A stretch of 64,000 nt of DNA. Origin: Clostridia bacterium. Lineage in GTDB: Bacteria > Bacillota > Clostridia > UMGS1840. The notes under the pieces are model-generated. The model ran no database searches. It was not told the origin of the DNA and saw only the letters and a list, made by a program, of their open reading frames with translations. The position numbers and the translations under genes were made by a program. Location of the stretch: positions 72,299 to 136,298 of the forward strand of contig JAGAKI010000079.1 of assembly GCA_017625695.1 (NCBI GenBank), given 5' to 3'. Positions 8,678-50,017 of this stretch are shown here, in pieces. Positions within the stretch are counted from its first letter, which is position 1, and each line of letters opens with the position of its first letter.

Positions 8678-10000
8678 TTAGTCTACCAGAAGACCGGTGA
8701 TTTCTTCGATAATGGTATCAATGTAGGCATCTGTCTGTCTGGTTTCTTTGATTTTTTCAATGGAATACATTACGGTAGAATGGTCTCTTCCGCCAAATTC
8801 TTCCCCGATTTTGGGTAAGCTCATTTCCAATACTTCTCTTGCTAAAAACATGGCAACCTGACGGGCTTTTACAATTTCTTTCTTTTTGGAAGAAGATTTT
8901 AACAGCTGGGGGTCGATGTTAAAGTAACCTGCAGTTTCCACCATAACGGTTTCAATTCCGGGTTTTACTTTTTTATTGTCCGCAATAATAACTTTAATCA
9001 CATCTTCCGCAATTTCACGGGTGATTTCCTGTTTGGATAATTTGGTCATTGCCACCAGACGGGTAAAAATACCTTCCAGTTCACGGACATTGGATTTGAT
9101 TTTTGATGCAATAAACTGGATAATTTCATCCTCAAGGGGGAAGTCCTCTTCCTCGGTTTTTTTCTTTAAAATGGCGATTCTGGTTTCTAAATCCGGAGCA
9201 TTGATATCACACATTAATCCTGCTTCAAAACGGGTTCTTAAGCGTTCTTCCAGGGTTCTGATATCTTTGGGAGGACGGTCAGAGGATAATACAATCTGTT
9301 TATCATTATGATATAAATGATTAAAGGTATGGAAGAATTCTTCCTGGGTTCCTTCTTTCCCTCCGATAAACTGAATATCGTCAACCATCAGCACATCAAT
9401 GTTACGCAGCTTGTCCCGAAAGGTGGTATTCTGTCCGGATTTAATGGAGTCGATAAACTCATTGGTAAAGGATTCTGAAGTTAAGTACAACACCTTCTTT
9501 GTGGGGTCGTTTTCTTTGATGCGGTTTCCGATTGCATGGAGCAGATGGGTTTTTCCCAGTCCAACACCCCCGTAGATGAATAAGGGGTTATAATTTTCTG
9601 CCGGACTTTCTGCAACTGCAACTGCTGCAGCATGTGCAAACCGGTTGGATTCCCCGATAACAAAGTTAGAAAAGGTATATTTTTTATTTAACGTGGAGGG
9701 TTCTTCCTCCATGGTATTGAACCGGTCTAACACCGAAGGAGTATTTTTTCTGTCATCTACAATAAAATCATATTCGGTCAGTTTTCCCTGAGAAGCGGTT
9801 ACGACAGCACTTTTTACCAGTTCTTTATATTTTTTTAAGATCATATCACGGGTATATTCAATGGGAACCCGTAAGTACAGGATATCATTTTCTATCTTTT
9901 CCGGTGTAACGGAATGGAACCAGGTGCTGTATGCCACCGGAGAAATTTCGTTTTTTATTATGTCAACTACCTTTTGGTAGAGTTCATCCGTGGAAAACAA
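8678..10000 (-). CDS. dnaA: chromosomal replication initiator DnaA
   Basis: 440 aa. AAA+ Walker A GGVGLGKTHL and a C-terminal DNA-binding region GGRDHSTV. Confidence 0.97.
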   Translation of the reverse strand: MFSTDELYQKVVDIIKNEISPVAYSTWFHSVTPEKIENDILYLRVPIEYTRDMILKKYKELVKSAVVTASQGKLTEYDFIVDDRKNTPSVLDRFNTMEEEPSTLNKKYTFSNFVIGESNRFAHAAAVAVAESPAENYNPLFIYGGVGLGKTHLLHAIGNRIKENDPTKKVLYLTSESFTNEFIDSIKSGQNTTFRDKLRNIDVLMVDDIQFIGGKEGTQEEFFHTFNHLYHNDKQIVLSSDRPPKDIRTLEERLRTRFEAGLMCDINAPDLETRIAILKKKTEEEDFPLEDEIIQFIASKIKSNVRELEGIFTRLVAMTKLSKQEITREIAEDVIKVIIADNKKVKPGIETVMVETAGYFNIDPQLLKSSSKKKEIVKARQVAMFLAREVLEMSLPKIGEEFGGRDHSTVMYSIEKIKETRQTDAYIDTIIEEITGLLVD

Positions 10001-10024
10001 GCGATTTCACCTCATTTTTTCTAT

Positions 10025-10069
10025 TATTCCACATTTTCTGTGGAAAAAATTTTCAATTACTGTGGAAAA
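10025..10069. promoter_or_regulatory. DnaA boxes upstream of dnaA (oriC part 1 / dnaA autoregulation)
   Basis: TATTCCACA 10025-10033 (7/9). TGTGGAAAA at 10039-10047 and 10061-10069 (8/9 to TGTGGATAA). An AT-rich tract lies at 10101-10146. Confidence 0.75.
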
Positions 10070-10164
10070 CCTATCTGCTCAAATATAGGGTTTTCCTCGT
10101 TTTTTGGTTTACATAATAATTAGAAAAATAATTTTTATTTTTTTTCAGTTTCCCTCTTGACATC

Positions 10165-10520
10165 TTTTAGTATTCGGGAAACTACGGATTGTTTCCTTTA
10201 CGTATTGGAACACGTGAGGATAGGACGGATCGTCTCTCTTACATATTGCAACACGCGAGGATAGGACGGATTGTTTTTTTAGAATTCGGGACACTATGGA
10301 ATATTTTTTTTAGAATTCGGGACACTATGGAATGTTTCTCTTACGTATTGGAACACATAAGAATAAAGGAATTTTTTTAGAATTCGGGAAACGACGGATT
10401 GTTTCCTTTACGTATGGGAACACGTAAGAATCAAGAATTCTTTCTCTTAGGTTACGCAACACGTGAGGATCACAAATTTCCTCCCTTAGGTTTGCAAAAC
10501 AGGTTTGTAGGGGCGTTGAT
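10165..10520. repeat. array of ~9 degenerate 31-41 bp tandem repeats
   Basis: Units such as TTACGTATTGGAACACGTGAGGATAGGACGGAT and TTAGAATTCGGGACACTATGGAAT alternate. No coding potential. Confidence 0.8.
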
Positions 10521-10563
10521 CAGCCACCTGTTGTATGGGGACTAAAACCTATGATAATCCCTC

Positions 10564-10590
10564 GTAGGGGACGATGCCCACATCGTCCCG
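10564..10590. repeat. REP-like palindromic hairpin
   Basis: GTAGGGGACGATGCCCACATCGTCCCG, a 9-bp stem with a 4-nt loop. Confidence 0.85.
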
Positions 10591-10634
10591 ATGGATGGAT
10601 ATCAAATGATTTTTTCTGTGATGTTACAAAAATC

Positions 10635-11903
10635 TTAACGAATGACATCAGTGCCCATATATTTTCTTAATACTTCAGGCACCGTAACAGAACCGTCTTC
10701 GTTCTGATAGTTTTCTAAAATTGCGGCAACCGTTCTTCCCACAGCCAGTCCGGAACCATTTAAGGTATGGCAAAGCTGGGGTTTTGCATTGATATCTTCT
10801 TTGAATTTGATGTTGGCTCTTCTTGCCTGATAATCCACAAAGTTGGAGCAGGAAGAAATTTCTACATATCTGCCGTAGCTGGGCATATAAACTTCCAAAT
10901 CATAGGTCATCGCAGAAGAGAAGCCTAAATCACCGGAGCATAACAGAACCACACGGTAGGGAAGTCCCAACAGCTGAAGCAAGCGCTCTGCATCATTGGT
11001 TAGGGATTCTAACTCCTCAAAAGAGGTTTCGGGGGTGGTGAATTTCACCAGCTCTACTTTATTGAACTGATGCTGACGGATTAAGCCTCTGGTATCTCTG
11101 CCTGCACTTCCCGCTTCTGCTCTGAAGCAAGCGGAATATGCACAATATTTGATGGGCAGATCTTCTTTTTTCATGATTTCATCCCGATGCAGATTGGTTA
11201 CGGGAACTTCTGCGGTAGGAATCATGAAGTAGTCGCAGTTTTTTAAGGAGAAAGCATCTTCCTCAAATTTGGGAAGCTGACCGGTACCGGTCATGGATGC
11301 ACGGTTTACCATATAGGGCGGTAAAATTTCGGTATAGCCGTTTTCGGTGTGGGTGTCTAAAAAGAAGCTAATCACTGCCCGTTCTAATTTTGCACCTAAC
11401 CCACGGTATACGGTGAATCGGGAACCTGTAATTTTTGCACCTCTTTCAAAATCCAGAATTCCTAAATTTTCCCCGATGTCCCAATGGGGTTTGAACGGAA
11501 AATCAAATTCTCTGGGAGTGCCCCATTTTCTGATTTCTTTGTTATCTTCATCAGAATTGCCGTCGGGAACGCAGTCGGCAGGAGTATTGGGAATTTTTAA
11601 TAAGGCAGTCTGCAATTCTTCCTGAATTTCTGCCAGTTCTTTATCCATTCCTTTAATCTGTTCCGACAGCTCTTTCATTTCCTGGAAAATAGGAGCGACA
11701 TCTTTTCCTTCTTTTTTCAGTTTGGGAATTTCTTTGGAAACGGTATTCTGCTTCATTTTCAAATTTTCTGCAGTATAGGTTAAGCTTCTTCTTTTTTCGT
11801 CTAATTCATAAACCTTTTCCAACAGCGAGAGGTCAGCTTTTTTAATGGTAAGCAGTCGTTTTACTTCTTCTTTTTCATCTCGAATTCGTTTTAAGTCCAG
11901 CAT
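10635..11903 (-). CDS. serS: serine--tRNA ligase
   Basis: 422 aa. N-terminal coiled-coil arm and class II core ([16 protein letters not shown]). Confidence 0.96.
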
Positions 11904-11967
11904 ATTTTTTTCTCCTTATTTCTCTTTCACAGAGCATCCTGTTTTTTTTACAGGATGTCAATTACAT

Positions 11968-11996
11968 ATTATAGTATATATTTCCACATTCGTCAA
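11968..11996 (-). promoter_or_regulatory. sigma-A type promoter for serS
   Basis: Minus strand TTGACG-17 nt-TATAAT. Confidence 0.55.
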
Positions 11997-12146
11997 GGCA
12001 AATAGGAATTTTTTACTTGGTTTTTTGATTCCTTTTTTTCTCTTTGTTTTTCTCAGCGAAAACAAACAAAACCGCAAAAGAATCCCTTTTTAAAAATTTT
12101 TCTTCTATATTTTAGGGTAATTTTCGGAACAAAAATCAATTCTTTC

Positions 12147-12995
12147 TTACACCAATTGGTCGATGATACGCTGTAAATCATCCTGGGAGTAATATTCAAT
12201 TTCAATTTTACTTTTGATTTTTCCGCTTTTAATCTGTACCTTGGTGCCGAATTTCTTGGCTAAACGGTTTTCCACTTCCATCACATTGGGGTCTTTTTTC
12301 AGATTTTTTTTGATGAGGGTGGTTCGTTTCTTCTGGGATAGTTTTTTTGCCAACTCTTCCGCTTCTCTTACCGAGATTTCATTTTTTACAATTTCATATA
12401 AGAGAAGTTTTTTGGTTTCGTCCGATTCCAGAGAAGACAAAGCTTTTGCATGTCCCACCGAAACCTTTCCTGCCTTGATTTCCTTTAAAACGAAATCCGG
12501 CAGATGTAAGATTCTTAAAATGTTGGCAACGGTGGAACGGCTCTTTGCCACCCGTTTGGCAATTTCTTCCTGGGTAAACCCAAACTGATCCTTTAACGTC
12601 TGATATCCCATGGCTTCTTCCAGAGGATTTAAGTCCTCACGCTGCAGATTTTCAATCAACGCAATTTCCATTACCTCACGGGTCTCGTAGTTCTTCACAA
12701 TGGCGGGAATTTTCTTTTTTCCTGCCAGTTTGGAAGCTCTCCACCGACGTTCTCCCGCAATGATTTCATAGAGTCCGTTTTCTTTTTGCCGTACCAGAAT
12801 CGGCGACAGCACCCCAACCTCCGAGATGGAATCCGCCAATGCCCGAAGTGCTTCCGGGTCAAAGTTTTTTCGGGGTTGTTTGGGATTGGGTTCAATATCC
12901 ATTATGGATAATTCATGGACTTTCCCGGTTCCGGTTTCTACGGTTTCTTCCAGCAGGGAAGAAAGACCCCGGCCAAGTCCTCCTTTTTTTGTCAT
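12147..12995 (-). CDS. parB: chromosome partitioning protein ParB/Spo0J
   Basis: ParB-box GERRWRA and an HTH region. Confidence 0.93.
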   Translation of the reverse strand: MTKKGGLGRGLSSLLEETVETGTGKVHELSIMDIEPNPKQPRKNFDPEALRALADSISEVGVLSPILVRQKENGLYEIIAGERRWRASKLAGKKKIPAIVKNYETREVMEIALIENLQREDLNPLEEAMGYQTLKDQFGFTQEEIAKRVAKSRSTVANILRILHLPDFVLKEIKAGKVSVGHAKALSSLESDETKKLLLYEIVKNEISVREAEELAKKLSQKKRTTLIKKNLKKDPNVMEVENRLAKKFGTKVQIKSGKIKSKIEIEYYSQDDLQRIIDQLV

Positions 12996-13043
12996 ATTAT
13001 CTAACTCCTTTACTTGTTACGCCTCAACTCAAGATTGCATCTG

Positions 13044-13808
13044 TTATTGGTTATGCTCTGCAATCTCCTGTGCAATTTTTAAGTAAGCGTCGGTACATTT
13101 GGAATGTTTGTCATAATAGAGAATTGGCTCTCCGTAACTGGGAGCTTCCCCCAAACGCACGCTGCGGGGGACGGGAGATTTGAATACCTTTTCTCCAAAA
13201 TATTTTTTGATTTCACCGGCAACCTGAAGGGTTAAGTTGGTCCGCCCGTCATACATGGTGAGGATCACTCCTTCCACCTCCAGGGTTTCATTGTAGCGGG
13301 ATTTGATTTTGCGTAAGGTGTTCATCAGCTGACTTAGTCCCTCCAATGCAAAATATTCACATTGGAGAGGAATCACAATGGAATCGGAGCCGGAGAGAAT
13401 ATTGATGGTGATCAGTCCCAGAGACGGCGGACAGTCCACAATCATAAAATCAAATTCCTCCCGGATAGGCTCCAGTGATTTTGAAAACTGAAATTCACGG
13501 TCGGAAACTCCAACCAGTTCTACTTCCGCACCTGCCAGATCAATGTTACAGGGGCAAACCCAAAGATTCTTAAAATCCGTTGCAACAAGCGACTTTTTGA
13601 TAGGTTCGTTTCCAATTAATACATCGTAAAAAGAGGATTCTACCTTTTCTTTATCCACACCAACACCGCTGGTGGCATTTCCCTGAGGGTCGGCATCAAT
13701 CAGCAAGACCTTTTTGCCGAAATGCCCTAAGCAGGCTGCTATATTGATGGCAGAGGTGGTTTTCCCAACGCCGCCTTTCTGATTTGCTACTGCAATAATT
13801 TTTCCCAT
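13044..13808 (-). CDS. parA: chromosome partitioning ATPase ParA/Soj
   Basis: Deviant Walker A KGGVGKTT. 254 aa. Confidence 0.94.
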   Translation of the reverse strand: MGKIIAVANQKGGVGKTTSAINIAACLGHFGKKVLLIDADPQGNATSGVGVDKEKVESSFYDVLIGNEPIKKSLVATDFKNLWVCPCNIDLAGAEVELVGVSDREFQFSKSLEPIREEFDFMIVDCPPSLGLITINILSGSDSIVIPLQCEYFALEGLSQLMNTLRKIKSRYNETLEVEGVILTMYDGRTNLTLQVAGEIKKYFGEKVFKSPVPRSVRLGEAPSYGEPILYYDKHSKCTDAYLKIAQEIAEHNQ

Positions 13809-13853
13809 AAATTCCCTGCCTTTCTGTCTTGAAATTCCGGGTAACCCTTCAAC

Positions 13854-13869
13854 TGTTCCCCGTGGAACA
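13854..13869. promoter_or_regulatory. parS site 1
   Basis: TGTTCCCCGTGGAACA, compared with the Firmicute parS TGTTNCACGTGAAACA. Confidence 0.75.
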
Positions 13870-13900
13870 TTTTGTTAATTCATAAAATATCCGGAAACAT

Positions 13901-13916
13901 TGTTCCCCGTGGAACA
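13901..13916. promoter_or_regulatory. parS site 2
   Basis: Identical 16-mer TGTTCCCCGTGGAACA. Confidence 0.75.
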
Positions 13917-14043
13917 AAAAAACGTAAAATTCATCTAAAAAGATAGATTGGTAACAACTATTGTAACATATTCATAAAAAAAAGTCCATAGTTTTTGTGA
14001 ATTTTTTTAATTTTTATACAGAGACCCATCTGTGACAGTAAAT

Positions 14044-14059
14044 TGTTCCCCGTGGAACA
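14044..14059. promoter_or_regulatory. parS site 3
   Basis: Identical 16-mer TGTTCCCCGTGGAACA. Confidence 0.75.
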
Positions 14060-27420: not shown

Positions 27421-27458
27421 AAGAATCGGTAAACACCCAAAACAATGGATACCCCCTC

Positions 27459-27485
27459 GTAGGGGACGATGCCCACATCGTCCCG
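27459..27485. repeat. REP-like palindromic hairpin with conserved flanks
   Basis: GTAGGGGACGATGCCCACATCGTCCCG. The flanks at 27433-27512 match 32506-32590. Confidence 0.85.
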
Positions 27486-27571
27486 CTGTGTGGCACCCAA
27501 ATTGTTTGGAGATTCCTTTATTTTTCATCGTTTACCAATCATAAATCATCCCGAAGGGAGAATTCTTAACA

Positions 27572-28873: not shown

Positions 28874-29153
28874 TTTTTCCGTAAATGAACTCGGAACGCT
28901 ATCGCTTGAAATGAACTTTGCCGCTCGGCGTATCCAATATACGCCTTCGGGTGTTACCAAAGCAAATGCTTTGGCAAAGTTTCTTCCATCCGAAGTCCAT
29001 TATACGAAAAAATAAACACAAATGAACTCGGAACGCTACCGCTTGAAATGAACTTTGCCCCTCGGCGTATCCAATATTTCTGAAACAAAGGCGGCAAATA
29101 ATAGAGTTTGAAAGACATCTCATAAACTACATCCGGGAAAGGAACTATCAGCT

Positions 29154-31142: not shown

Positions 31143-32315
31143 ATGCGTAAATTATTATTGGGAAAATGCGGAGAACTGGCCTTAAAAGGGCTAAACCGCA
31201 GAAATTTTGAAGACCAGCTGTTGAAAAACATCAGGAATCAGTTAAAAGGACTGTTACAGTCTGTCACCATCCATCAGTCTGCCATCTATATGGAACCCGC
31301 TGAGGATGCCGATTTTTATGAAATGCTGGAAAAGGCAAAAAACGTATTCGGCTTAAAATCCGTTTCCGTGGTGTATCAGACCGAAAAGGATATGGAAATT
31401 ATGAAAAAAGATGCCCTGGAATTGCTCCGTGATAAATTAACGGGCAAATCCTTTAAAGTGGAAGCCAAACGTGCAGATAAAACCTTCCCCTTGAACTCTC
31501 CTGCCATCTGTCAGGAGCTGGGCGGATTTTTGCATGATCACATTGAAAACTTAACCGTTGATGTAAAAAATCCCGACATTCAGGTGATGGTAGAGGTCCG
31601 GGAAAAAGGTGCTTACATCTATTTTGAAAAAGAAGAATGTCACGGCGGTCTGCCTGTTGGTACCGGCGGACGGGGCGTGCTTTTGTTATCCGGCGGGATT
31701 GACAGTCCCGTAGCCGGCTTTATGATGGCAAAACGAGGATTAAAACTGGAAGCCGTTCATTTTTATTCCTATCCCTATACCTCCGAACGTGCCAAACAAA
31801 AGGTGATTACCTTAGCAAGAACCATTGCAAAATATACCGGCCCCTACCGCCTTCACGTGGTTCCCTTTACGGAAATTCAGTTAGCCATTGGGGAAAAGTG
31901 CCGGGAAGATATGATGACCCTGGTGATGCGTCGTTTTATGATGAAAATTTCCCAGCGTGTGGCGCTTGACAACAACTGCGGTGCCCTGGTCACCGGCGAA
32001 AGCTTAGGACAGGTGGCAAGTCAGACCATTGAGGGACTGCAGGTTACCAATTCAGCGGTGGACCTTCCGGTGTTTCGTCCCTTAATCGGGATGGACAAAA
32101 CCGAAATCACCGAAATTTCCCGTAAAATGGATGCTTTTGAAACCTCCATTTTACCCTATGAAGATTGCTGTACCGTCTTTACCCCCAAGCATCCCAAGCT
32201 TCATCCCAGAGTGAAAGATGTTATCTTGGAAGAACAGAAGCTGGATATGGATGCACTCATAGAAGAGGCAGTTGCCAATATTGAAAGAGTACACATTTGT
32301 GCCGAAGATTTGTAG
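31143..32315 (+). CDS. thiI: tRNA 4-thiouridine(8) synthase
   Basis: THUMP domain plus PP-loop SGGIDSPV. Confidence 0.93.
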   Translation: MRKLLLGKCGELALKGLNRRNFEDQLLKNIRNQLKGLLQSVTIHQSAIYMEPAEDADFYEMLEKAKNVFGLKSVSVVYQTEKDMEIMKKDALELLRDKLTGKSFKVEAKRADKTFPLNSPAICQELGGFLHDHIENLTVDVKNPDIQVMVEVREKGAYIYFEKEECHGGLPVGTGGRGVLLLSGGIDSPVAGFMMAKRGLKLEAVHFYSYPYTSERAKQKVITLARTIAKYTGPYRLHVVPFTEIQLAIGEKCREDMMTLVMRRFMMKISQRVALDNNCGALVTGESLGQVASQTIEGLQVTNSAVDLPVFRPLIGMDKTEITEISRKMDAFETSILPYEDCCTVFTPKHPKLHPRVKDVILEEQKLDMDALIEEAVANIERVHICAEDL

Positions 32316-32331
32316 TTCGATAATTTTTATC

Positions 32332-32474
32332 TGTTCTTTTTCTTTGATGTCAAAGAAAAGAACCAAAAAGAAACTGCCGCCTGGTATTTCCGCAATCCCG
32401 AATTTCCGTCGTTTGGAAACGGTAGAGAATTGCGAAAATAAGGGCGGATTCTTGGGTTTCGTCGCTGGATAACG
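32332..32474 (+). repeat. ~145-bp interspersed element, copy E1
   Basis: TTCTTTGATGTCAAAGAA palindrome, then CCGCCTGGTATTTCCGCAAT...ATTGCGAAAATAAGGGCGG long hairpin, then GATAACG. Confidence 0.8.
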
Positions 32475-32530
32475 TTTTTTTGTGGGCGGTACCATCGTTT
32501 GTGTACACCCAAAACAACGGATAACCCCTC

Positions 32531-32557
32531 GTAGGGGACGATGCCCACATCGTCCCG
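32531..32557. repeat. REP-like palindromic hairpin (between E1 and E2)
   Basis: GTAGGGGACGATGCCCACATCGTCCCG. Confidence 0.85.
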
Positions 32558-32602
32558 CTGTGTGGTTACCCGGAACGTTGTTTGGAATTGATATTTTTTG
32601 TA

Positions 32603-32745
32603 TGTTCTTTTTCTTTGATGTCAAAGAAAAGAACCAAAAAGAAACCACCGCCTGGTATTTTTGCAACCCCGAACCTCCGTCTTCCTGATACGGTATTCCA
32701 TTGCGAAAATAAGGGCGGAAAGTTTGCTTTCGTCGTTTGATCAGG
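32603..32745 (+). repeat. ~145-bp interspersed element, copy E2
   Basis: Tandem with E1 at a period of about 271 bp. Confidence 0.8.
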
Positions 32746-36940: not shown

Positions 36941-37267
36941 GAGCGTGTCATCAAAATTTGGAACGAAAGGTTCCCGAGGGTGAATATTACGACCGCTTGA
37001 ATTTGTAAAACCCTTTCAAGCTAAGGCCAGACGGACAGCCGGGTCGAACGCCGAAACGCCGGATAAAAACATCCGGTTGGCAGGGAAAACCTGCCTTATT
37101 GATTGAGTTAGAAGCTCAAATTTTATAAGTTGGTTCCTTTACAACCATGTGCCAAACAGCACACATCGACTTGTGAAACGGTCAATAAGAGTACGCGTAT
37201 CAAACTCTGAAACCTATCCAAATTGTCAAGGGGTGTTTTGTCCCCTTTGGGAAAACGATTCTTACAA

Positions 37268-37304
37268 GCGGTGTGTCTTAGGGCATACCGCTTTTTGTTT
37301 TTTT
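37268..37304 (+). terminator. leader (attenuator) terminator upstream of potA
   Basis: 8-bp stem GCGGTGTG/CATACCGC followed by TTTTTGTTTTTTT. It ends 30 nt before the potA GTG. Confidence 0.7.
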
Positions 37305-37333
37305 CTAAATTTTCGGGGAAGGGTGAAGCCTTA

Positions 37334-38455
37334 GTGGAACATAAAAAGATTATTGAATTACAAAATATTTCCAAGGAGTTTGAAGACGAACAGGTGTTAA
37401 GCTCCATCAATTTAGATATCTATGACAAGCAGTTTGTGACCTTGCTTGGTCCCTCCGGTTGCGGAAAAACCACCACCTTACGAATTGTGGGCGGTTTTGA
37501 AACTCCCGATCAGGGGGATGTGCTGTTTGAGGGAAAACGCATCAACGATGTGCCTGCCCACAAGAGAAGCATCAACACCGTGTTTCAGAAATATGCTTTG
37601 TTCCCTCATTTGAATGTGTTTGAAAATGTGGCATTTTCTCTGCGGTTACAGAAACTTCCCAATGCGGAAATTATCAAACGTGTGAAAGAAATGCTGGAAC
37701 TGGTTGCCCTAAAAGGCTTCGAGCGAAAAAACGTAACCAAATTATCCGGCGGTCAGCAACAGCGTGTTGCCATCGCCAGAGCCTTAATCAGCCATCCCCG
37801 TGTGTTGTTGCTGGACGAGCCTCTGGGTGCGTTGGACTTAAAGCTTCGGAAAGATATGCAGAACGAACTGAAAAAAATCCAGAAACAGACCGGCATCACC
37901 TTTATCTATGTTACCCACGACCAGGAGGAAGCACTCTCCATGTCTGACGTGGTAGTAGTTATGGCAGAGGGCAAAATTCAGCAAATCGGAACTCCAACCG
38001 ATATCTATAACGAACCCGTCAATGCATTTGTTGCTGACTTTATCGGTGAAAGTAACATTGTAGACGGCATTATGAACGAAGATTATAAGGTTACCTTCTC
38101 CGGACACACCTTCCAATGTGTGGATAAAGGCTTTGCCCCCGGGGAAGCGGTGGATGTTGTGGTACGTCCCGAAGATGTGGATGTGGTAAACGTAGCCGAC
38201 GGAATGTTACAGGGGACTGTAACTTCTGTTACCTTCAAAGGGGTTCACTATGAAATCATCGTGGATATCGGTGGTTTCAAATGGATGATTCAGTCCACTG
38301 ATTTTGTGGATGTGAATGCCAATATCGGCATCTTTATTGAACCCGATGCCATTCATATTATGAAGAAATCCGAATTCTCCGGTCAGTACGGTGACTATTC
38401 TACCTTCTCTGACGAAATTGAAGAACTGGGAAACTCCGAAACGGTAGGTGACTAA
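37334..38455 (+). CDS. potA: spermidine/putrescine ABC transporter ATP-binding protein
   Basis: [30 protein letters not shown], and a C-terminal TOBE-like domain. GTG start follows a GGGGAAGGGTGA RBS. Confidence 0.92.
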
Positions 38456-39272
38456 GATGGAAAAAACCAGGAAAAATCTTGGCAGACTGATTGCAGCACC
38501 TCATATCCTCTGGTCAGTTCTGTTTATTTTGGCACCTCTCATTTTTGTGGTGTATTATACCTTTACCGATGCCTATGGCACCTTCACCTGGGAAAATATT
38601 TTCGCCTTGAAGGAACATGCCAACACCTTTTTAATTTCGGTGAGTCTGTCGGTCATTGCTACCTTTATTTGCTTTTTGGTGGGATATCCTCTGGCGTATC
38701 TGATTGCCGGATATAAGGAAAAATCTCAGAAAATTATGATTACCCTGTTGATGCTTCCCATGTGGACCAATCTGTTAATCCGTACCTACTCCATGATGGC
38801 AATTATGGACGACGGCGGATTTTTAAACTCCATTTTAGGGGCATTGAATCTTGGCAAAGTGCATCTCATCGGTACCAAGGGTGCCGTCATTTTCGGGATG
38901 GTATACGATTTTCTGCCCTATATGGTGCTTCCCATCTATACCATCATTTCCAAGCTGGATAAAAACCTGCTGGAAGCCGCAAGAGACCTTGGCTGTAACC
39001 CCTTCCAGGTTCTTTGGAAAGTGGTGCTTCCCCTTTCCTCCGGCGGTATCATTTCCGGCATCACCATGGTGTTCGTTCCCTCCATTTCCACCTTCTACAT
39101 TTCTCAGAAGTTGGGCGGCGGTACCTTTGAACTCATCGGTGACACCATCGAACGCCAATTCCAAAACGTATCCACCTACAACGTAGGTGCCGCAATATCG
39201 TTAGTTATGATGATTTTAGTTTTGGTTTCGCTTGCAGTGATGAACCGCTTCACAAAGGAAGAGGCGTCGTAA
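38448..39272 (+). CDS. potB: spermidine/putrescine ABC transporter permease
   Basis: 6 TM, EAARDLG loop. Start is GTG at 38448 or ATG at 38457. Confidence 0.9.
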
Positions 39273-39428
39273 ACAAGCGCCTTTCCGTCTTTACGTTCCC
39301 TTGCGTACACTCAGTACGCGGCGTTCTCTGAAAGAGCGGAAATGCATCTTGTTTTCATCCGCCTCATTGATATGGAAGAGGCGTCATAACAGCCATCGGC
39401 TGTTTTTCATCCGCCTCATTGGTATCTT

Positions 39429-39455
39429 GTAGGGGACGATGCCCACATCGTCCCG
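39429..39455. repeat. REP-like palindromic hairpin inside the pot operon
   Basis: GTAGGGGACGATGCCCACATCGTCCCG. Confidence 0.85.
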
Positions 39456-39518
39456 TGTAACCGGTCACCAACAAACGGGAGGAGAACATTCCTCCCCTAC
39501 ACAGAAAGGTAAAAAAAT

Positions 39519-40325
39519 ATGAAAGCTTTGTCCCGAATCTATACCGCTTTGATTTTCATCATTTTATACATCCCCATTGTGGTGCTGATGCTGTTTTCCT
39601 TTAACTCTACAGCCAACACCGGTGATCTGACGGGGCTTTCTTTGTATTGGTACCGTGAGCTGTTTTCCTCTCCCGATACCTTCAACGCCTTAAAAAATAC
39701 CCTGGTGCTGGCAGTCAGTGCATCAGTAATTTCCACTGTCATCGGAACTGCGGCAGCGGTGGGACTTTGTAAATTCAAAAAAAACTTCTTTAAAAATTCG
39801 GTCCTTTCTGTCACCAATATTCCCATGATGAATCCCGATATCGTAACCGGGATTTCCATGATGCTTCTGTTTGTGTTTTTAGGAACCTTATTGGGCAGAG
39901 ATGAAAAGCTGGGATTCACAACCCTTCTGATTGCCCATGTTACCTTCTGTCTGCCCTATGTAATTTTATCAGTACGTCCCAAAATCTTAACCATGCCCCG
40001 TTCCTTACCCGAAGCGGCACAGGATTTGGGTTGTACCCCTCTGCAGTCCTTCTTTAAAGTGGAACTGCCTCAGATTTTACCCGGTGTGATTTCCGGATTT
40101 ATTCTGGCATTTACCTTGTCGTTGGATGATTTTGTCATTAGTTACTTCACCACGGGAAACGATTTTCAGACCTTACCGTTACTCATTTATTCCATGACCA
40201 AAAAAGAGGTGAAACCGGACATCTACGCCCTTTCCACCTTAATGATTTTAACAGTTACGGTGCTGTTGATACTCTCTAACGTATCGTCCAAAGAAAAAAG
40301 CACAGAAAGAAGGTTGACACTGTAA
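39519..40325 (+). CDS. potC: spermidine/putrescine ABC transporter permease
   Basis: 6 TM, EAAQDLG loop. Confidence 0.9.
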   Translation: MKALSRIYTALIFIILYIPIVVLMLFSFNSTANTGDLTGLSLYWYRELFSSPDTFNALKNTLVLAVSASVISTVIGTAAAVGLCKFKKNFFKNSVLSVTNIPMMNPDIVTGISMMLLFVFLGTLLGRDEKLGFTTLLIAHVTFCLPYVILSVRPKILTMPRSLPEAAQDLGCTPLQSFFKVELPQILPGVISGFILAFTLSLDDFVISYFTTGNDFQTLPLLIYSMTKKEVKPDIYALSTLMILTVTVLLILSNVSSKEKSTERRLTL

Positions 40326-41530
40326 TGAAAAAAGTTCTTTTGTTATGGGTGGTATCGGTTTTTCTGGCGGTTTCTCTTTCCGGATGCGGCGGGCAGTCTG
40401 AAAAACTCACCTTAAATGTATATAACTGGGGAGAATATATTTCCGATGGCAGTGAAGATTCTCTGGATGTGAATGAAGAATTTGAAAACTACTGCCGTGA
40501 TGAGCTGGGGATGGAGGTTTCGGTCAACTATACCACCTACGCCAGCAACGAGGATATGTATAACAAACTAAAAAGCGGTTCCGCTACCTACGATGTTGTG
40601 ATTCCCTCGGAATATATGATTGAAAAAATGATAGCAGAGGATATGCTCTCTCCCCTTGATTTTTCCAATATCCCCAACTATCAGTATATTGACGACAATT
40701 TTAAAAACCTGTTTTTCGACCCGGACAATACCTATTCGGTGCCCTACACCTACGGAATGGTGGGTATTATCTACAACAGCGAAATGGTTGCAGAAGAAGA
40801 CTTGGGAAGCTGGGATTTACTCTGGAACGAAACCTACAAAGGGCAGATTCTGCAGTTCAACAACCCCCGTGATGCCTTTGGAACTGCTATCTACTGGGCA
40901 AAAGACAGCGTAAACTCCACCGACCCTGCGGTATGGCAGTCTGCAGTGGAAAAGTTAAAAGCACAGAAGCCCCTCATCCAAAGCTATGTTATGGACGAAA
41001 TTTTCAATAAAATGAAAAATGGCTCTGCTGCCATTGCTCCTTACTATGCAGGCGATTATCTCACCATGTATGATTCCAACGATTTATTAGGCTTCTACTA
41101 TCCCGAAGAGGGGACAAACGTGTTTGTAGATGCGATGTGCGTCCCCGCCTGTGCCAAAAATCAGGAGTTGGCAGAACTCTATATCAACTTTATGCTGGAA
41201 AAAGAAATTGCTATCGCCAATGCAGAATACATCGGCTATGCATCTCCCCATACCTTAGTCCGTGAAGATGAGGACTACATCGCCTATATGCAAGACTGGC
41301 ACGATGATGCAATGGAAATTCTCTACGCCCAAGACTCGGCAGTCAAAACCGAATATTACGAAAGTTTAGATACCGATACACTGTCATTGCAAAACAGTCT
41401 GTGGGAAACCTTAAAAATTGAAAATGCGGTGGAACCCTGGATTTATATGACTGCGGGAACCATTGTAGGAGCATTGATTTTATTCTTCCTATATAGCTAT
41501 TTTGTAAAAAGATACCGCAATCATTATTAA
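40325..41530 (+). CDS. potD: spermidine/putrescine-binding lipoprotein
   Basis: Lipobox LSGCGG and a PotD/PotF-type SBP body. An extra C-terminal hydrophobic helix (TAGTIVGALILFFLYSYF) is present. Confidence 0.85.
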   Translation: MKKVLLLWVVSVFLAVSLSGCGGQSEKLTLNVYNWGEYISDGSEDSLDVNEEFENYCRDELGMEVSVNYTTYASNEDMYNKLKSGSATYDVVIPSEYMIEKMIAEDMLSPLDFSNIPNYQYIDDNFKNLFFDPDNTYSVPYTYGMVGIIYNSEMVAEEDLGSWDLLWNETYKGQILQFNNPRDAFGTAIYWAKDSVNSTDPAVWQSAVEKLKAQKPLIQSYVMDEIFNKMKNGSAAIAPYYAGDYLTMYDSNDLLGFYYPEEGTNVFVDAMCVPACAKNQELAELYINFMLEKEIAIANAEYIGYASPHTLVREDEDYIAYMQDWHDDAMEILYAQDSAVKTEYYESLDTDTLSLQNSLWETLKIENAVEPWIYMTAGTIVGALILFFLYSYFVKRYRNHY

Positions 41531-41555: not shown

Positions 41556-41603
41556 AAAAAGACGAAATTCAAATTTTTTACTTTTGAATTTCGTCTTTTT
41601 TTT
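41556..41603. terminator. bidirectional terminator module (family copy 1)
   Basis: A5-GACGAAATTCAAA-10 nt-TTTGAATTTCGTC-T8. Serves potD (+) and Cys-rich gene A (-). Confidence 0.85.
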
Positions 41604-41853
41604 ATATTTCACTTGATTTTATTTGTTCTTGTATTTCTTCTATCTTTTCTAATTTTAAAGTGTAATTCTCATTGCGGGGACACTCAATATGCACACATTC
41701 GTTACAAGGTTTTTTCCGAAAATGCTCAATACAACAACCCAAATAGTTACATTCGTCACAACAACATTCGTTCCCGTTTTCTCCGTTTCCCGGGCAGTCT
41801 TTTCCGCCATTTCCCGGAATCAGTTCAATTCCTGTAGGTCCGTCAATAATCAT
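41602..41853 (-). CDS. small cysteine-rich protein, paralog A (83 aa, 10 Cys)
   Basis: MIIDGPTGIELIPGNGGKDCPGNGENGNECCCDECNYLGCCIEHFRKKPCNECVHIECPRNENY.... GGAGG RBS 7 nt upstream. Only synonymous differences from copy C. Confidence 0.85.
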   Translation of the reverse strand: MIIDGPTGIELIPGNGGKDCPGNGENGNECCCDECNYLGCCIEHFRKKPCNECVHIECPRNENYTLKLEKIEEIQEQIKSSEI

Positions 41854-42088: not shown

Positions 42089-42094
42089 TCTTTG

Positions 42095-42244
42095 TTCATT
42101 TTTTTCTTTGATAGCAAAGAAAAAACGAACCAAAAAAAGAAACTACCGCCTGGTATTTTCGCAATCCCGGACATTCGTCTTTTGAACTGTGTATTCGATT
42201 GCGAAAATAAGGGCGGATTTTTTTCGTTTCGTCTTTCGATAACG
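42095..42244 (+). repeat. ~145-bp interspersed element, copy E3
   Basis: Same conserved CCGCCTGGTATTTTCGCAAT...ATTGCGAAAATAAGGGCGG core. Confidence 0.8.
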
Positions 42245-42423
42245 AAAATGGGTTATCTGCAACCTGACAGAGAAAACTACTATGTAATTGTTTGCAAGCG
42301 AATGATAGAACAGCCGTGCGGCGACTGAGCACTCGTGTAAAAGGGGTAAGGGGTTCGTTAAGGGGGATAGGGGGAATATCGAAAATTCCCCCTGCTCCCT
42401 TGACATAAAAAAACGAAAAAGTA

Positions 42424-42452
42424 TTGCAAAATTAGAATATTTATGATAAGAT
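42424..42452 (+). promoter_or_regulatory. promoter of paralog B
   Basis: TTGCAA-17 nt-TAAGAT with an extended-10 TGA. Confidence 0.6.
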
Positions 42453-42643
42453 AAAAGTGCTAAACAAACAGAATACTGTTCTATGGGAAAATCAGCCACA
42501 CTTACAGTTGGATATGATTCCTTATTTTTGTACACTCTAATCGTATGAATTTTGCTAAAAAACGCAGATTCCAAGCGGTTAGAGTGCTGGGTTGTTCCCT
42601 CTCTATTCTGTTTGTTTAGCGACTACGGGAGTTTGCGTTTTTT

Positions 42644-42675
42644 GTGCGTCAACGACCGTTGGCGCATTTTTTATT
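42644..42675 (+). terminator. leader terminator immediately upstream of the RBS of paralog B
   Basis: GTGCGTCAAC-GACC-GTTGGCGCAT followed by TTTTTATTT, then GAAGGAG. Confidence 0.65.
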
Positions 42676-42691
42676 TGAAGGAGAGAAATCT

Positions 42692-42943
42692 ATGATTATT
42701 GACGGACCTACAGGAATTGAACTGATTCCGGGAAATGGCGGAAAAGACTGTCCGGGCAACGGAGAAAACGGCAACGAATGTTGTTGCGACGAATGTAACT
42801 ATTTGGGTTGTTGTATTGAGCATTTCCGGAAAAAACCTTGTAACGAATGTGTGCATATTGAGTGTCCCCGCAATGAAAATTACGGATTACGACTGGAACG
42901 AATCCGTGCATTGGAAGAACAAATCAAAAACGATACGATATAA
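42692..42943 (+). CDS. small cysteine-rich protein, paralog B (83 aa)
   Basis: The first 65 aa are identical to A and C with at least 7 synonymous changes. The C-terminal 18 aa diverge (GLRLERIRALEEQIKNDTI). Confidence 0.85.
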   Translation: MIIDGPTGIELIPGNGGKDCPGNGENGNECCCDECNYLGCCIEHFRKKPCNECVHIECPRNENYGLRLERIRALEEQIKNDTI

Positions 42944-43112: not shown

Positions 43113-43119
43113 ATAGTTG

Positions 43120-43146
43120 TTAGCACTCAGACGAATAGAGTGCTAA
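43120..43146. promoter_or_regulatory. CIRCE operator (HrcA binding site)
   Basis: TTAGCACTC-N9-GAGTGCTAA, a perfect consensus. Confidence 0.95.
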
Positions 43147-48983: not shown

Positions 48984-49029
48984 AAAAAGACGAAATTCAA
49001 ATTTTTTACTTTTGAATTTCGTCTTTTTT
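48984..49029. terminator. terminator module (family copy 2)
   Basis: GACGAAATTCAAA-9 nt-TTTGAATTTCGTC with flanking A and T tracts. Near-identical to 41556-41603. Confidence 0.8.
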
Positions 49030-49030: not shown

Positions 49031-49282
49031 CTATATTTCACTTGATTTTATTTGCTCTTGTATTTCTTCTATCTTTTCTAATTTTAAAGTGTAATTCTCA
49101 TTGCGGGGACACTCAATATGCACACATTCGTTACAAGGTTTTTTTCGGAAATGCTCAATACAACACCCCAAATAGTTACATTCATCACAACAACATTCGT
49201 TCCCGTTTTCTCCGTTTCCCGGGCAGTCTTTTCCGCCATTCCCCGGAATCAGTTCAATTCCTGTAGGTCCGTCAATAATCAT
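49031..49282 (-). CDS. small cysteine-rich protein, paralog C (83 aa)
   Basis: The protein is identical to paralog A. Six synonymous nucleotide differences, and a TAG stop where A has TAA. Confidence 0.85.
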   Translation of the reverse strand: MIIDGPTGIELIPGNGGKDCPGNGENGNECCCDECNYLGCCIEHFRKKPCNECVHIECPRNENYTLKLEKIEEIQEQIKSSEI

Positions 49283-49328: not shown

Positions 49329-49490
49329 GAAAAATGCATAACTCCTTTGCTTGCGACAAAAATTTACATCTTAGGGCATGAAACTCCAAAAGTATGCAAA
49401 AACAGAGTATGCATTTTTACCAATAGTAAAAATACACACTTTCAGAGTAATTCATGCAGAGAATCAATATGAAATTTTTGTCGCAAAATT

Positions 49491-49519
49491 ATTGTACCAT
49501 AAATATTCTGATTTTGCAA
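49491..49519 (-). promoter_or_regulatory. promoter of paralog C
   Basis: Minus strand TTGCAA-17 nt-TACAAT with an extended-10 TGG. Confidence 0.65.
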
Positions 49520-49699
49520 TACTTTTTCGTTTTTTTATGTCAAGGGAGCAGGGGGAATTTTCGATATTCCCCCTATCCCCCTTAACGAACCCCTTACCCC
49601 TTTTACACGAGTGCTCAGTCAACCCACGGCTGTCCTATCCGACAATTTGGAAAACGAAAGAAAGATGTTCCACATTAGGCTTTTGGTAACCTATAATAT

Positions 49700-49851
49700 C
49701 GTTATCGAAAGACGAAACGAAAAAAATCCGCCCTTATTTTCGCAATTCTCTACCGTTATCAAACGACGGAGGTTCGGGATTGCGGAAATACCAGGCGGCA
49801 GTTTCTTTTTTTGGTTCGTTTTTTCTTTGCTGTCAAAGAAAAAAATGAACA
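49700..49851 (-). repeat. ~145-bp interspersed element, copy E4 (reverse orientation)
   Basis: The reverse complement matches E1 and E3. Confidence 0.8.
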
Positions 49852-49898
49852 TATAAAAAAATTTTAATTCCAAACAACGTTTGGTCACAACCACACAG

Positions 49899-49925
49899 CG
49901 GGACGATGTGGGCATCGTCCCCTAC
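49899..49925. repeat. REP-like palindromic hairpin (reverse orientation)
   Basis: CGGGACGATGTGGGCATCGTCCCCTAC. Confidence 0.85.
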
Positions 49926-50017
49926 GAGGGTTAATTCAACGTTTTGGGAGTACACAAACGTATGGTACCACCCATACAAAAACGTTATCAAAAGACGAAC
50001 AATATGATATCATACAA

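Follow-up and report, generated by a model that had tools for sequence, protein, structure and literature searches.

The 64,000-nucleotide stretch of DNA analysed here (the window) holds a replication origin, with dnaA (8678–10000), dnaN, parA/parB and a cluster of DnaA boxes (8259–8468), and, 22–41 kb from dnaA, all four of its copies of a non-coding repeat of about 150 bases with two hairpins, named E in this report. E1 and E2 lie in tandem between thiI and a gene for a U32 peptidase, and E3 and E4 lie upstream of Cys-rich genes. The four copies listed in an earlier note on this DNA are all present, as seen from an invariant 19-mer, ATTGCGAAAATAAGGGCGG, that occurs four times without a mismatch against 0.03 expected. 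The palindrome TTTCTTTGnnnnCAAAGAAA, given there as the 5' end, recurs at the same four places, but the first hairpin proved longer than noted (GTTC...GAAC). A fifth, truncated remnant consists of the tail sequence TGTTCGTCTTTTGATAACG at 49983–50001 on the minus strand.

32333–32474, plus strand: E1, starting 18 nt past the thiI stop codon (32313–32315); nhmmer E = 1.3e-51
32333–32363, plus strand: hairpin 1 of E1
32364–32376, plus strand: A-rich linker of E1
32377–32447, plus strand: hairpin 2 of E1
32448–32474, plus strand: tail of E1
32475–32603, plus strand: E1–E2 spacer, with a T-run, the small palindrome GTGGGCGGTACCATCG, a REP-family hairpin and the block AACGTTGTTTGGAATT
32531–32556, plus strand: REP hairpin of GTAG type, GTAGGGGACGATGCCCACATCGTCCC, one of at least 10 family members in the window
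32604–32745, plus strand: E2, ending 75 nt upstream of the start of the U32-peptidase gene (32820)
32604–32634, plus strand: hairpin 1 of E2
32648–32718, plus strand: hairpin 2 of E2
41602–41853, minus strand: Cys-rich paralog
42094–42244, plus strand: E3, with a long-type hairpin 1; z = −5.9
42094–42130, plus strand: hairpin 1 of E3 (long type)
42146–42216, plus strand: hairpin 2 of E3, followed by a T7 tract and the tail
42304–42411, plus strand: B module after E3, G-rich and highly conserved, with a long GC-rich hairpin
about 42427–42455, plus strand: promoter of the Cys-rich gene at 42692–42943, TTGCAA-17-TGaTAAGAT
42644–42667, plus strand: terminator-like hairpin ending the leader of the same gene
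42692–42943, plus strand: Cys-rich gene of 83 amino acids downstream of E3 and B
49031–49282, minus strand: Cys-rich paralog
49532–49639, minus strand: B module after E4, 92% identity
49700–49850, minus strand: E4
49850–49814, minus strand: hairpin 1 of E4
49798–49728, minus strand: hairpin 2 of E4, followed by a T7 tract and the tail
49851–50001, minus strand: spacer copy with REP upstream of E4, preceded by the truncated E tail (50001–49983)

Anatomy, partner modules and genomic position

E runs from an AT-rich hairpin of 13–16 bp (hairpin 1, 31–37 nt long) through an invariant A-rich linker to a 71-nt imperfect hairpin set between A- and T-tracts (hairpin 2), whose stem of about 19 bp carries a branched 30-nt top. 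The tail GTTTCGTC..GATAACG at E1, E3 and E4 agrees with the 3' end described previously as usual. Across an alignment of 18 copies, 95.7% of cells in both hairpins are paired, as against 46–57% with the partners slid. Hairpin 1 occurs as two subtypes whose two arms differ in length by a matching 3 nt, and its loops are inverted between copies (GACAGC/GCTGTC, GATGTC/GACATC). The 30-nt centre of hairpin 2, formerly taken to be variable, does vary in part, but it includes a near-invariant C(C/T)GTC(T/G)T.

The tandem arrangement of E1 and E2 holds, at 271 nt from start to start and 83% identity, and E2 is orthologous to the single copy that related species carry. Their spacer recurs, as had been proposed, beside E4 (72 nt, 90% identity) and, by its REP part, at 27433–27493 (97% identity), and its blocks also flank E copies in L001, L007 and L010. 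The truncated E tail preceding the spacer of E4 suggests that an E–spacer–E tandem formerly stood there. The B block, about 110 nt in length, is recognised by the landmarks GATAGAACAGCCGTGCGGCG..GGGGTAAGGGG..AAGGGGGATAGGGGGAA..TTCCCCCTGCTCCCTTGACAT, and E is joined to spacer blocks, REP and B in differing orders. In another species E–B units of about 320 nt stand in tandem upstream of a Cys-rich gene (L038 and L040); these arrays were found by nhmmer and blastn, and Tandem Repeats Finder missed them on both loci because REP interrupts the unit copies. E is best taken as one module of a clade-specific mosaic repeat set, which a small number of uncultured gut Clostridia carry in the gaps that separate their housekeeping genes.

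Several likenesses to known motifs were dropped. A tRNA or tRNA-like origin of B or E was rejected, ARAGORN finding no tRNA in the window. Within B, TGAGCACTC reproduces eight of the nine bases of a CIRCE half-site and the second half is absent; the true CIRCE lies at 43119–43145. The spacer sequence GGGTGGTACC / GGGCGGTACC recalls the core of a T-box, and RF00230 is absent even at E ≤ 10, while the outer arms CCGCC/GGCGG lack the AAC/GTT boxes of an integron attC site and no tyrosine recombinase is present in the window. These three likenesses and that to a K-turn were inspected by eye, and all four were abandoned. E was also rejected as parS, the parS-like TGTTCCCCGTGGAACA being found elsewhere, three times at 13854–14059.

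At eight of 11 independent loci E lies just 3' of a co-oriented gene, a bias that is not significant alone (binomial p ≈ 0.11). The genes concerned are thiI (with E 2–18 nt past the stop codon), leuS, rdgB, a DivIVA-like gene, potD, a TM2 gene, the L012 gene and a 2-Hacid dehydrogenase gene. In L011, leuS and a sigma-factor gene converge on a gap that E fills, stopping 21 nt short of the sigma-factor stop codon. The upstream neighbour is divergent in three copies (E3, L007 and L036), and the divergent promoter in front of the left Cys-rich gene (42088–42060, minus strand) has its −35 box 6 nt away from the 5' end of E3. The association with Cys-rich genes, which the earlier note had described as direct, is real and recurs in other species, but is indirect, since E3 and E4 are 447 and 417 nt away and the 110-nt B block, a sigma-70-type promoter and a leader of about 200 nt intervene. 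In the leader upstream of the Cys-rich gene, 7 of 17 pairs covary.

Copies in related genomes, selection and coding potential

Full copies of E number 18 across about eight genomes. Fourteen are outside the window, in about seven related assemblies of uncultured gut 'Clostridia bacterium', both at different positions and at shared ones, namely downstream of thiI, leuS and the DivIVA-like gene, each with a copy in two or three species. Scanning the GTDB species representatives (596 Gb) for the exact 19-mer returned nine real full copies distributed over three related MAGs, one of them truncated where its locus stops; the remaining four matches are due to chance, being about the number expected for a 19-mer in 596 Gb. 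A representative genome carries about three to five exact matches, and in the MAG JAZUBQ four of five are on one 127-kb contig. All 13 matches to the 5'-arm pattern in JGI metagenomes and the one 19-mer match in IMG/VR are chance, and blastn against PLSDB plasmids and INPHARED phages gave no match to E.

The description of E as new has held up against Rfam 15, in which nothing relevant was found at gathering or permissive thresholds for the window and eight related loci. SpF59 (36990–37054) was the only family over the whole window, and what appeared at E ≤ 10 over E1/E2 and at E ≤ 1 over E3 and B was miRNA-type noise far below threshold. Neither of the outcomes weighed against the proposal in the earlier note, a known family or a lack of more copies, has therefore come about, as no family matched and further copies exist. 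At the strain level, same-species contigs covering the E1/E2 site (L033) and the Cys-rich cassettes (L041) keep the same layout, and further contigs are reported to be similar. Assemblies with the species of the window include ERZ28018764, ERZ28654397 and the SAMN158301xx series. Contigs L034 and L035 end inside the repeat.

The copies of E are kept by purifying selection. In the gap between thiI and the U32-peptidase gene E is 78–83% identical between species; the genes on either side reach only 45–59% at their four-fold degenerate sites, and outside E the gap is not alignable (24–46% identity). The small open reading frame pointed out previously in E1 and E2 is present there, as read directly, with 41 codons and without a Shine-Dalgarno sequence. 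Its ATG occurs in only three of the 18 copies (E1, E2 and L009), E3 and E4 lacking it as claimed, and is missing elsewhere because of the loop inversions. As a small protein gene this frame was rejected, for 1-nt indels fall within it in L001, L005, L009, L010, L011 and L036, and frame-breaking indels together with loss of the ATG mark it as non-coding. Spurious annotated ORFs, e.g. 32151–32666, 42143–42574 and 49378–49689, are accounted for by E.

Folding and terminator-like features

Hairpin 2 has a folding energy of −15 to −33 kcal/mol on either strand, and the 8 nt that follow it include at least five T in 13 of 18 copies on the element strand and in all 18 on the opposite one, so that, judged by sequence, E looks terminator-like on both strands. 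A terminator consensus scan did not call hairpin 2, because its loop exceeds the limits of the scan. On the element strand the T-tract has been lost in five of the 18 copies with the hairpin kept. It is degraded to 3–4 T in all four copies between thiI and the U32-peptidase gene (E1, E2, L028 and L029), where the next gene is co-oriented, and 6–8 T are kept where a convergent gene or a new promoter is faced (E3, E4, L001, L007, L009, L010 and L011). Four copies (E4, L009, L010 and L011) have an ordinary terminator ahead, which makes E dispensable for ending the upstream gene at these loci. Ordinary terminators can do without invariant arms and without conservation of a 5' hairpin or of a tail; in E the 19–20 nt arms are invariant and both the 5' hairpin and the tail (TTTCGTC..GATAAC) are also conserved, and this conservation of sequence suggests recognition by a specific protein or RNA.

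A structured RNA had been suggested for E, and the two hairpins are indeed real, but covariation is almost absent, with a double change in one of 27 pairs, because the arms barely vary. The single covarying pair passes from C-G through U.G to U-A in one lineage, 19 of the 27 pairs never vary, and the covariation score was equalled or reached in 30 of 500 shuffles. On the element strand a conserved U.G forms the sixth pair, but pair 78/123 is C x A in 10 of 18 copies, and the asymmetry between G.U and A.C is equivocal as to strand, the pattern of wobbles and mismatches being reversed on the other strand.

Candidate explanations and relation to known repeats

Tentatively, and at somewhat less than an even chance, E would be a structured intergenic module similar to BIME and BOX elements, active at transcript 3' ends and spread by recombination. 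Its transcription, strand and termination are what we infer throughout this reading. E would be transcribed as the 3' end of the co-oriented upstream gene, and some copies may have a weak promoter of their own, composed of the spacer end and TATGTT. The RNA would then present two hairpins, an AT-rich one at the 5' end and an imperfect one of 71 nt between an A-tract and a U-tract, and might act as a bidirectional intrinsic terminator, a 3'-end stabiliser or an insulator between transcription units, with the U-tract tuning termination, degraded where transcription must run on into the next gene (thiI to U32) and preserved where an operon ends. Multiplication and reshuffling of the copies would have proceeded by homologous recombination, gene conversion and tandem duplication, not by transposition, a mode of spread to which the mosaic pattern points. 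Thus the whole centre of E2 is 100% shared with the ortholog L029 of another species, yet the two differ in hairpin-1 subtype; the centre of E1 is 94% identical to that of E4, and the spacer of E1 matches that of E4; each genome holds both subtypes, and these differ at orthologous loci; and in L038 and L040 the E–B units have multiplied in tandem.

A hairpin, a single strand and a terminator hairpin with a U-tract also form the classic layout of a small RNA, and it is conceivable, if improbable, that the copies are stand-alone sRNA genes of about 125–130 nt, each beginning with a weak sigma-A-type promoter and a 5' hairpin and continuing through an A-rich single strand to a terminator of its own. 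Targets would be paired by the invariant linker AAAAAGAAAC or by the pyrimidine-rich, anti-Shine-Dalgarno-like apical loop CUUCCGUCUUCCUG, and the promoter would be TTGTTT in the spacer end followed, after 17–19 nt, by TATGTT. TATGTTC does stand 3–7 nt ahead of hairpin 1 in about 10 of 18 copies, with AAC(G/A)TT(G/A)TTT 17–19 nt further upstream in E2, E4, L001, L007 and L010 (two species); E4 and L010 follow a canonical terminator and hence would need their own promoter for expression, and strong purifying selection on E is also in keeping with such genes. However, both hexamers match the consensus at only four of six positions in AT-rich DNA and were not called by a promoter scan, E1, L028 and L029 follow a stop codon so directly that a −35 box cannot fit, and the −10 box of E1 and of E3 has no A at its second position. 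The loss of the plus-strand U-tract in five of 18 copies, the lack of an Rfam match and the lack of covariation support for a selected RNA fold count against sRNA genes as well. It is likewise unlikely that the active form of E is DNA, double-stranded or extruded, in which a protein specific to the clade (a regulator, an organiser of the nucleoid or of the origin domain, or a protein of recombination) binds the two long palindromes and the RNA folds are incidental. Such a site would explain why the palindrome arms are conserved in sequence beyond pairing alone, and the loop inversions and matched arm lengths are typical of DNA palindromes (template switching) and of dimer sites with a free spacer. 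The presence in the window of oriC with three parS-like sites and the four copies at their distance from dnaA, the clustering in JAZUBQ, and the abutment of E3 and the L036 copy on divergent promoters, hairpin 1 proximal, point the same way. Yet orientation tracks local transcription, E4 being inverted with its neighbours and 8/11 loci being co-oriented with the upstream gene, and E is far bigger and more modular than the chromosomal sites parS, matS and ram. Moreover, the distances from hairpin 1 to the promoter are inconsistent (about −60 vs about −80), the clustering may be mere local duplication, and the window offers no candidate binder, recombinase or unusual DNA-binding gene. A bolder proposal, to which we would give little chance, is that E or the E–B unit of about 320 nt represents a new functional class that would control the stress-linked cassettes of small genes on either side of the hrcA-dnaK operon, beside oriC, in this clade of uncultured gut Clostridia; it would be a structured, sequence-specific RNA that has its own protein or RNA partner, or else a family of DNA sites close to the origin.

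Mobility was the other suggestion of the earlier note, which had called E MITE-like. That comparison failed, as terminal inverted repeats, target-site duplications and transposase or RAYT genes were not found in the window, and exact copies number only about three to five per genome. The ends of E (..TATGTTC-TTTTTCTTTG.. / ..TTTCGTC-TTCGATAACG) are not mutual reverse complements, its inverted repeats being the internal hairpins, and no variable direct repeats flank the 18 copies. GATAA(C)-TTTTT on both sides of E1 might be read as such a duplication, but the GATAA-T5 pair is the element's own tail motif. A non-autonomous element, now mostly inactive, of MITE-like or of IS200/IS605-type palindrome-associated kind (the latter inserting single-stranded without terminal repeats or duplications) would nonetheless fit a multi-copy repeat whose positions vary by species, E and B standing upstream of gpsA in L009 and being absent there in the window; the same intergenic site holds different subtypes in different species, E co-occurs with the GTAG-type REP family, and the tail TTTCGTC..GATAAC occurs without an E body at 50001–49983 and partly to the left of the L011 copy, and could be a preferred target. 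Still, no clean pair of filled and empty sites was found, the upstream gene and gene order at gpsA differing between genomes, and plasmids, phages and viral contigs hold no copies. Three orthologous loci have kept E in species whose synonymous sites are saturated, and E is conserved far above neutral DNA. Such persistence at one locus while four-fold sites approach saturation agrees with a module under selection better than with one that moved recently; we consider a mobile origin doubtful. Least probable is that E has no function and was copied neutrally along with the Cys-rich cassettes in local segmental duplications. E3 and E4 do lie in larger duplicated blocks with Cys-rich gene, promoter and leader, and E1/E2 are a tandem duplicate, but copies also occur at loci without a Cys-rich gene (thiI, leuS, rdgB, DivIVA-like), and cross-species conservation is well above neutral with the adjacent intergenic DNA not conserved, so that this explanation is already largely refuted.

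No described family is matched by E, which looks most like the terminator-type intergenic repeats of other bacteria. REP/BIME elements of enterobacteria are extragenic palindromes arranged in mosaics, often at gene 3' ends or in convergent gaps, and are linked to mRNA 3'-end stabilisation and termination. E resembles them in joining GTAG-type REP, spacer blocks and B as a mosaic and in its location at gene 3' ends (8/11 loci after a co-oriented gene), but its hairpins are 31–37 and 71 nt long instead of about 35 nt and unrelated in sequence, there are a handful per genome instead of hundreds, and no RAYT transposase was seen in the window; E also lacks the GTAG head, which the neighbouring REP has as a member of a separate family. 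BOX (boxA-boxB-boxC) and RUP of Streptococcus pneumoniae are modular intergenic Firmicutes repeats of about 100–200 nt with predicted stem-loops, co-transcribed and variable in module number. E shares the modular intergenic stem-loop design, but has no sequence similarity to these families, which exceed 100 copies, and neither the terminal inverted repeats nor the TA duplications of RUP, a MITE mobilised by IS630. Correia/NEMIS elements of Neisseria are small intergenic repeats, co-transcribed with flanking genes, that supply terminators, promoters and processing sites; E has neither the terminal inverted repeats of 26 bp nor the TA duplications found in them, and does not reach their hundreds of copies. 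With bidirectional Rho-independent terminators E has in common a GC-closed hairpin with an A-tract before and a T-tract after it, on both strands in most copies; it differs from intrinsic terminators in its unusually long stem, its sequence conservation among unrelated loci and species, its added conserved 5' hairpin and 3' tail, and the loss of the T-tract in 5/18. The bcr1 repeats of the Bacillus cereus group have terminal repeats and TTTAT duplications. E shares with bcr1 and other stem-loop-sequence (SLS) families an intergenic location, a length of about 150 nt and a predicted fold that is conserved, and for such repeats action at the RNA level has been proposed. A survey of 40 genomes described 92 SLS families, two-thirds of which share a predicted secondary structure and are intergenic (Cozzuto et al. 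2008, PMC2267715). The families described do not include E, and the uncultured gut Clostridia that carry it are absent from those surveys.

Lineage-specific stem-loop repeat families are common in bacteria, so E is an expected kind of feature (PMC2267715). For annotation it explains both spurious ORFs and contig breaks at repeat sites. E is a selectively maintained non-coding module in a clade known only from MAGs, whose transcript boundaries and small RNAs are barely known. Its conserved arms, 5' hairpin and A-rich linker and its arrays with the partner B hint at a specific binding partner, which makes E a defined target for metatranscriptomic 3'-end mapping.

Form and fold of the E repeat

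Direct reading of the sequence confirmed four copies of E, a ~150-nt intergenic repeat with two hairpins, at the positions assigned to them in an earlier note. They span:

32333-32474 (+), E1
32604-32745 (+), E2
42094-42244 (+), E3
49700-49850 (-), E4

These align with a mean column identity of 79% and long invariant runs, and the window holds exactly four occurrences of the 19-mer ATTGCGAAAATAAGGGCGG, against 0.03 expected. E1 and E2 form a tandem duplicate with a spacing of 271 nt; the intervening spacer recurs beside E4, with its REP part again at 27433, and its embedded hairpin is indeed a REP, of the GTAG type, with at least ten copies within the window. The 3' tail is shared by three of the four copies, and a fifth, truncated remnant of the tail motif lies at 50001-49983 (minus strand). 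The earlier description is accurate apart from three corrections. The 5' palindrome is present at all four places but belongs to a longer hairpin 1 (GTTC...GAAC, 13-16 bp); the hairpin-2 centre, called variable, contains a near-invariant C(C/T)GTC(T/G)T; and E3 and E4, placed directly upstream of Cys-rich genes, are actually ~420-450 nt away from them.

Parts of E, from the 5' end

motif TATGTTC
hairpin 1, in two subtypes with a 3-nt difference on each arm: GTTC-T5-CTTTG / CAAAG-A4-GAAC, and GTTC-A-T7-CTTTG / CAAAG-A6-C-GAAC
invariant A-rich linker, ..AAAAAGAAAC
hairpin 2, 69-72 nt
T-tract
conserved tail, TTTCGTC-n-TTCGATAAC

The hairpin-1 loop (4-6 nt) occurs in both orientations among copies (GACAGC/GCTGTC, GATGTC/GACATC). 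At the base of hairpin 2 CCGCCU pairs with GGGCGG, followed by a GG/A internal loop, above which UAUUUyCGCAAU pairs with AUUGCGAAAAUA; the predicted fold of the 30 nt at the top differs from copy to copy. Predicted folding energies lie between -15 and -33 kcal/mol whichever strand is taken. Thirteen of 18 copies have a T-rich run after hairpin 2 on the element strand, and all 18 have one on the opposite strand. In form, hairpin 2 as modelled appears to be a bidirectional intrinsic terminator plus extra conserved parts.

E is at most a candidate structured RNA. The helices are real complementarity, 95.7% of cells pairing when the structure is imposed on 18 copies versus 46-57% with slid partners, but covariation is nearly absent: 19 of 27 helix pairs show no variation, a double change is seen in one pair only (C-G to U.G to U-A, in a single lineage), and the covariation score is equalled by 30 of 500 shuffles. 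Nor does the asymmetry of wobbles and mismatches point to one strand. The proposed mini-ORF was rejected as a gene: no more than three of the 18 copies have its ATG, and six carry 1-nt indels within the frame.

Distribution and maintenance across species

The comparison with Rfam, covering the window and related loci, yielded no known family matching E. Plasmid and phage collections likewise gave no match, and scans of JGI metagenomes and IMG/VR returned chance matches only. Among GTDB species representatives, the 19-mer picked out three uncultured 'Clostridia bacterium' MAGs from the human gut, which together hold nine real full copies, the locus end cutting one of them; matches in Pseudomonadales, Dehalococcoidia and Bacteroidia, and inside a V-ATPase gene, were judged to be chance. 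Four further assemblies, including MAGs JAZOKE, JAZQGY and JAGBEY, yielded more copies at orthologous loci reached by way of homologs of ThiI and the Cys-rich protein, and the contig obtained for each site in the window's own species (L033, L041) has the same layout. Further copies thus exist in related genomes, and with no match elsewhere the family is real, spans several genomes and has a narrow distribution.

E1 and E2 take up the 505 nt that separate thiI from a U32-peptidase gene, within a run of tRNA/rRNA-modification genes. In two other species (ThiI 88-90% identical) this site holds one E each, in both starting 2-5 nt past the thiI stop codon.

Between-species identity at the thiI-U32 site

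E: 78-83%
four-fold degenerate sites of thiI and U32: 45-59%
remaining intergenic DNA: 24-46%

The 38-nt E2 centre is identical to that of L029, a locus from a related assembly, and E is kept in two species both after leuS (L005, L011) and after a DivIVA-like gene (L001, L009). Cross-species conservation and persistence at shared loci largely rule out a neutral local duplication and argue for function. E represents a family of intergenic stem-loop repeats that is genuine, undescribed and maintained by selection. It is of a well-known kind, 92 such families having been described across 40 genomes (PMC2267715).

Mosaic evolution and genomic surroundings

Features of the window

6974-14059, chromosomal origin region (dnaN, dnaA, serS, parB, parA)
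6974-8077, dnaN
8678-10000, dnaA
12147-13808, parB and parA
8259-8468, six clustered DnaA-box-like sites, with two more at 10039-10069
13854-14059, three identical parS-like sites, TGTTCCCCGTGGAACA
2470-2557, 4465-4575, 10538, 14300, 27433, 32505, 39428, 49891, 50010, GTAG-type REP family, GTAGGGGACGATGCCCACATCGTCCC and variants
28883-28940 and 29020-29077, 58-nt direct repeat, 97% identical, 137 nt start to start
36990-37054 (+), SpF59 sRNA / ldcC RNA (RF02440), 63.1 bits against a threshold of 37.2
41556-41600, 48984-49028, 57611-57661, 45-nt perfect palindromic bidirectional terminator repeat, AAAAAGACGAAATTCAAATTTTTTACTTTTGAATTTCGTCTTTTT
41602-41853 (-), 42692-42943 (+), 49031-49282 (-), Cys-rich paralogs, 83 aa, 11 Cys, MIIDGPTGIELIPGNGGKDCPGNGENGNECCCDEC...
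42456-42691 (+), 42052-41854 (-), 49490-49283 (-), leader; also L010 570-795, L036 3831-4000, L038, L040 1236-1415
42304-42411 (+), 49639-49532 (-), G-rich block B; also L005, L008, L009, L012, L028, L038, L040

Each genome has both hairpin-1 subtypes, which are older than speciation. Orthologous sites can differ in subtype, E2 at thiI being short-type and L028 and L029 long-type despite the centre common to E2 and L029. The E1 centre is 94% identical to that of E4, the E1 spacer matches the one beside E4, and the tail remnant upstream of the latter suggests that an E-spacer-E tandem once stood there too. From these we infer that E2 is the ancestral thiI copy, and that recombination with an E4-like tandem brought in E1 and the spacer. 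Downstream, E is partnered either by spacer blocks and REP (E1, L001, L007, L010) or by B (E3, E4, L005, L008, L009, L012, L028). In L038 and L040, E-B units of ~320 nt form 2-3.5 tandem repeats directly upstream of the promoter of the Cys-rich gene; REP is inserted into E copies of both loci, disrupting one E-B unit of the arrays. BIMEs in enterobacteria show modular shuffling, which that of E resembles.

B (~110 nt) is more conserved across species than E and has no Rfam match. It reads GATAGAACAGCCGTGCGGCGAyTGAGCACTCGT..GGGGTAAGrGG..AAGGGGGmTAGGGGGAA..TTCCCCCTGsTCCCTTrACAT, with four G-tracts (a G-quadruplex-type motif) or, as an alternative fold, a ~20-bp GC-rich hairpin.

Two inverted cassettes, one with E3 and the other with E4, flank the hrcA-grpE-dnaK-dnaJ operon. 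In each, E is followed by the 110-nt B, then by a sigma-70-type promoter, a ~200-nt leader with a terminator-like hairpin at its end, and the 83-aa Cys-rich gene. Since the two inverted gene copies bracket the operon, recombination between them could invert it. Divergent from E3 lies a third Cys-rich gene, whose promoter ends 6 nt from E3 hairpin 1. L041, the one same-species contig obtained here, has the same left-hand layout, and six further contigs were reported to be similar. The protein contains no Pfam domain, and its 136 homologs, all unnamed, are found in Clostridia/Oscillospiraceae MAGs. The structured leader is preceded by a strong promoter (TTGACA/TTGCAA-17-TGnTACAAT) and leads into the small gene, its terminal hairpin being followed by TTTTTTATTT and a Shine-Dalgarno sequence. 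It shows compensatory changes in 7 of 17 predicted pairs, has no match in Rfam, precedes an unrelated acidic 63-aa protein (MADYKKLYYYLY...) instead of the Cys-rich gene in L010, and is partially matched, up to a terminator-type hairpin and with no Cys-rich gene after it, in L005; it is a candidate new cis-regulatory RNA.

The window as a whole is a housekeeping region including the replication origin. Gene strand and GC skew switch near 16-19 kb, and degenerate tandem repeats of 41-67 nt (..GGAAACTACGGATTGTTTCCTTTACGTATTGGAACACGTGA..) immediately upstream of dnaA, at 10162-10466, may be origin repeats. REP copies are often paired in inverted orientation, and the family also occurs in related MAGs. 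The 45-nt palindromic terminator, found also in L011 (1780-1829) and L036 (~3575-3610), has the motif TTTCGTCTTT in common with the E tail. SpF59, the sole Rfam match of the window, lies upstream of polyamine ABC transporter genes (37223-41530). The 58-nt direct repeat is just upstream of a class II aminoacyl-tRNA synthetase gene at 29154, and Rfam detected no T-box there.

Proposed role of E

Of 11 independent loci, eight have E shortly after a co-oriented gene, and in L011 it exactly fills the gap between convergent genes. All four thiI-U32 copies, where the next gene is co-oriented, have a degraded + strand T-tract (3-4 T), and copies that face a convergent gene or a fresh promoter have an intact one (6-8 T). 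Position and T-tract pattern fit a structured module that would serve as 3' end, terminator or insulator and be tuned locally in its leakiness through the state of the T-tract. This reading is put forward tentatively, because four copies come after an ordinary terminator, three have divergent upstream neighbours, and the invariant arm sequences, 5' hairpin and tail go beyond what a terminator needs.

OriC-proximal clustering, with four of five JAZUBQ matches on one contig, and palindrome-type mutations would speak for a family of DNA-level binding sites, which we consider unlikely. An sRNA gene family is similarly improbable. It is just as doubtful that E is a decayed mobile element: no transposase, integrase or recombinase is encoded within the 64-kb window, and the MITE-like character once proposed lacks its hallmarks, the ends not being inverted repeats, no variable target duplications being seen beside the copies, and copy number amounting to a handful per genome.

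The mechanism of E is a candidate only, the terminator reading leading at modest confidence. The most interesting loose ends are the E-B arrays and the conservation of E at the sequence level, which suggests a partner.
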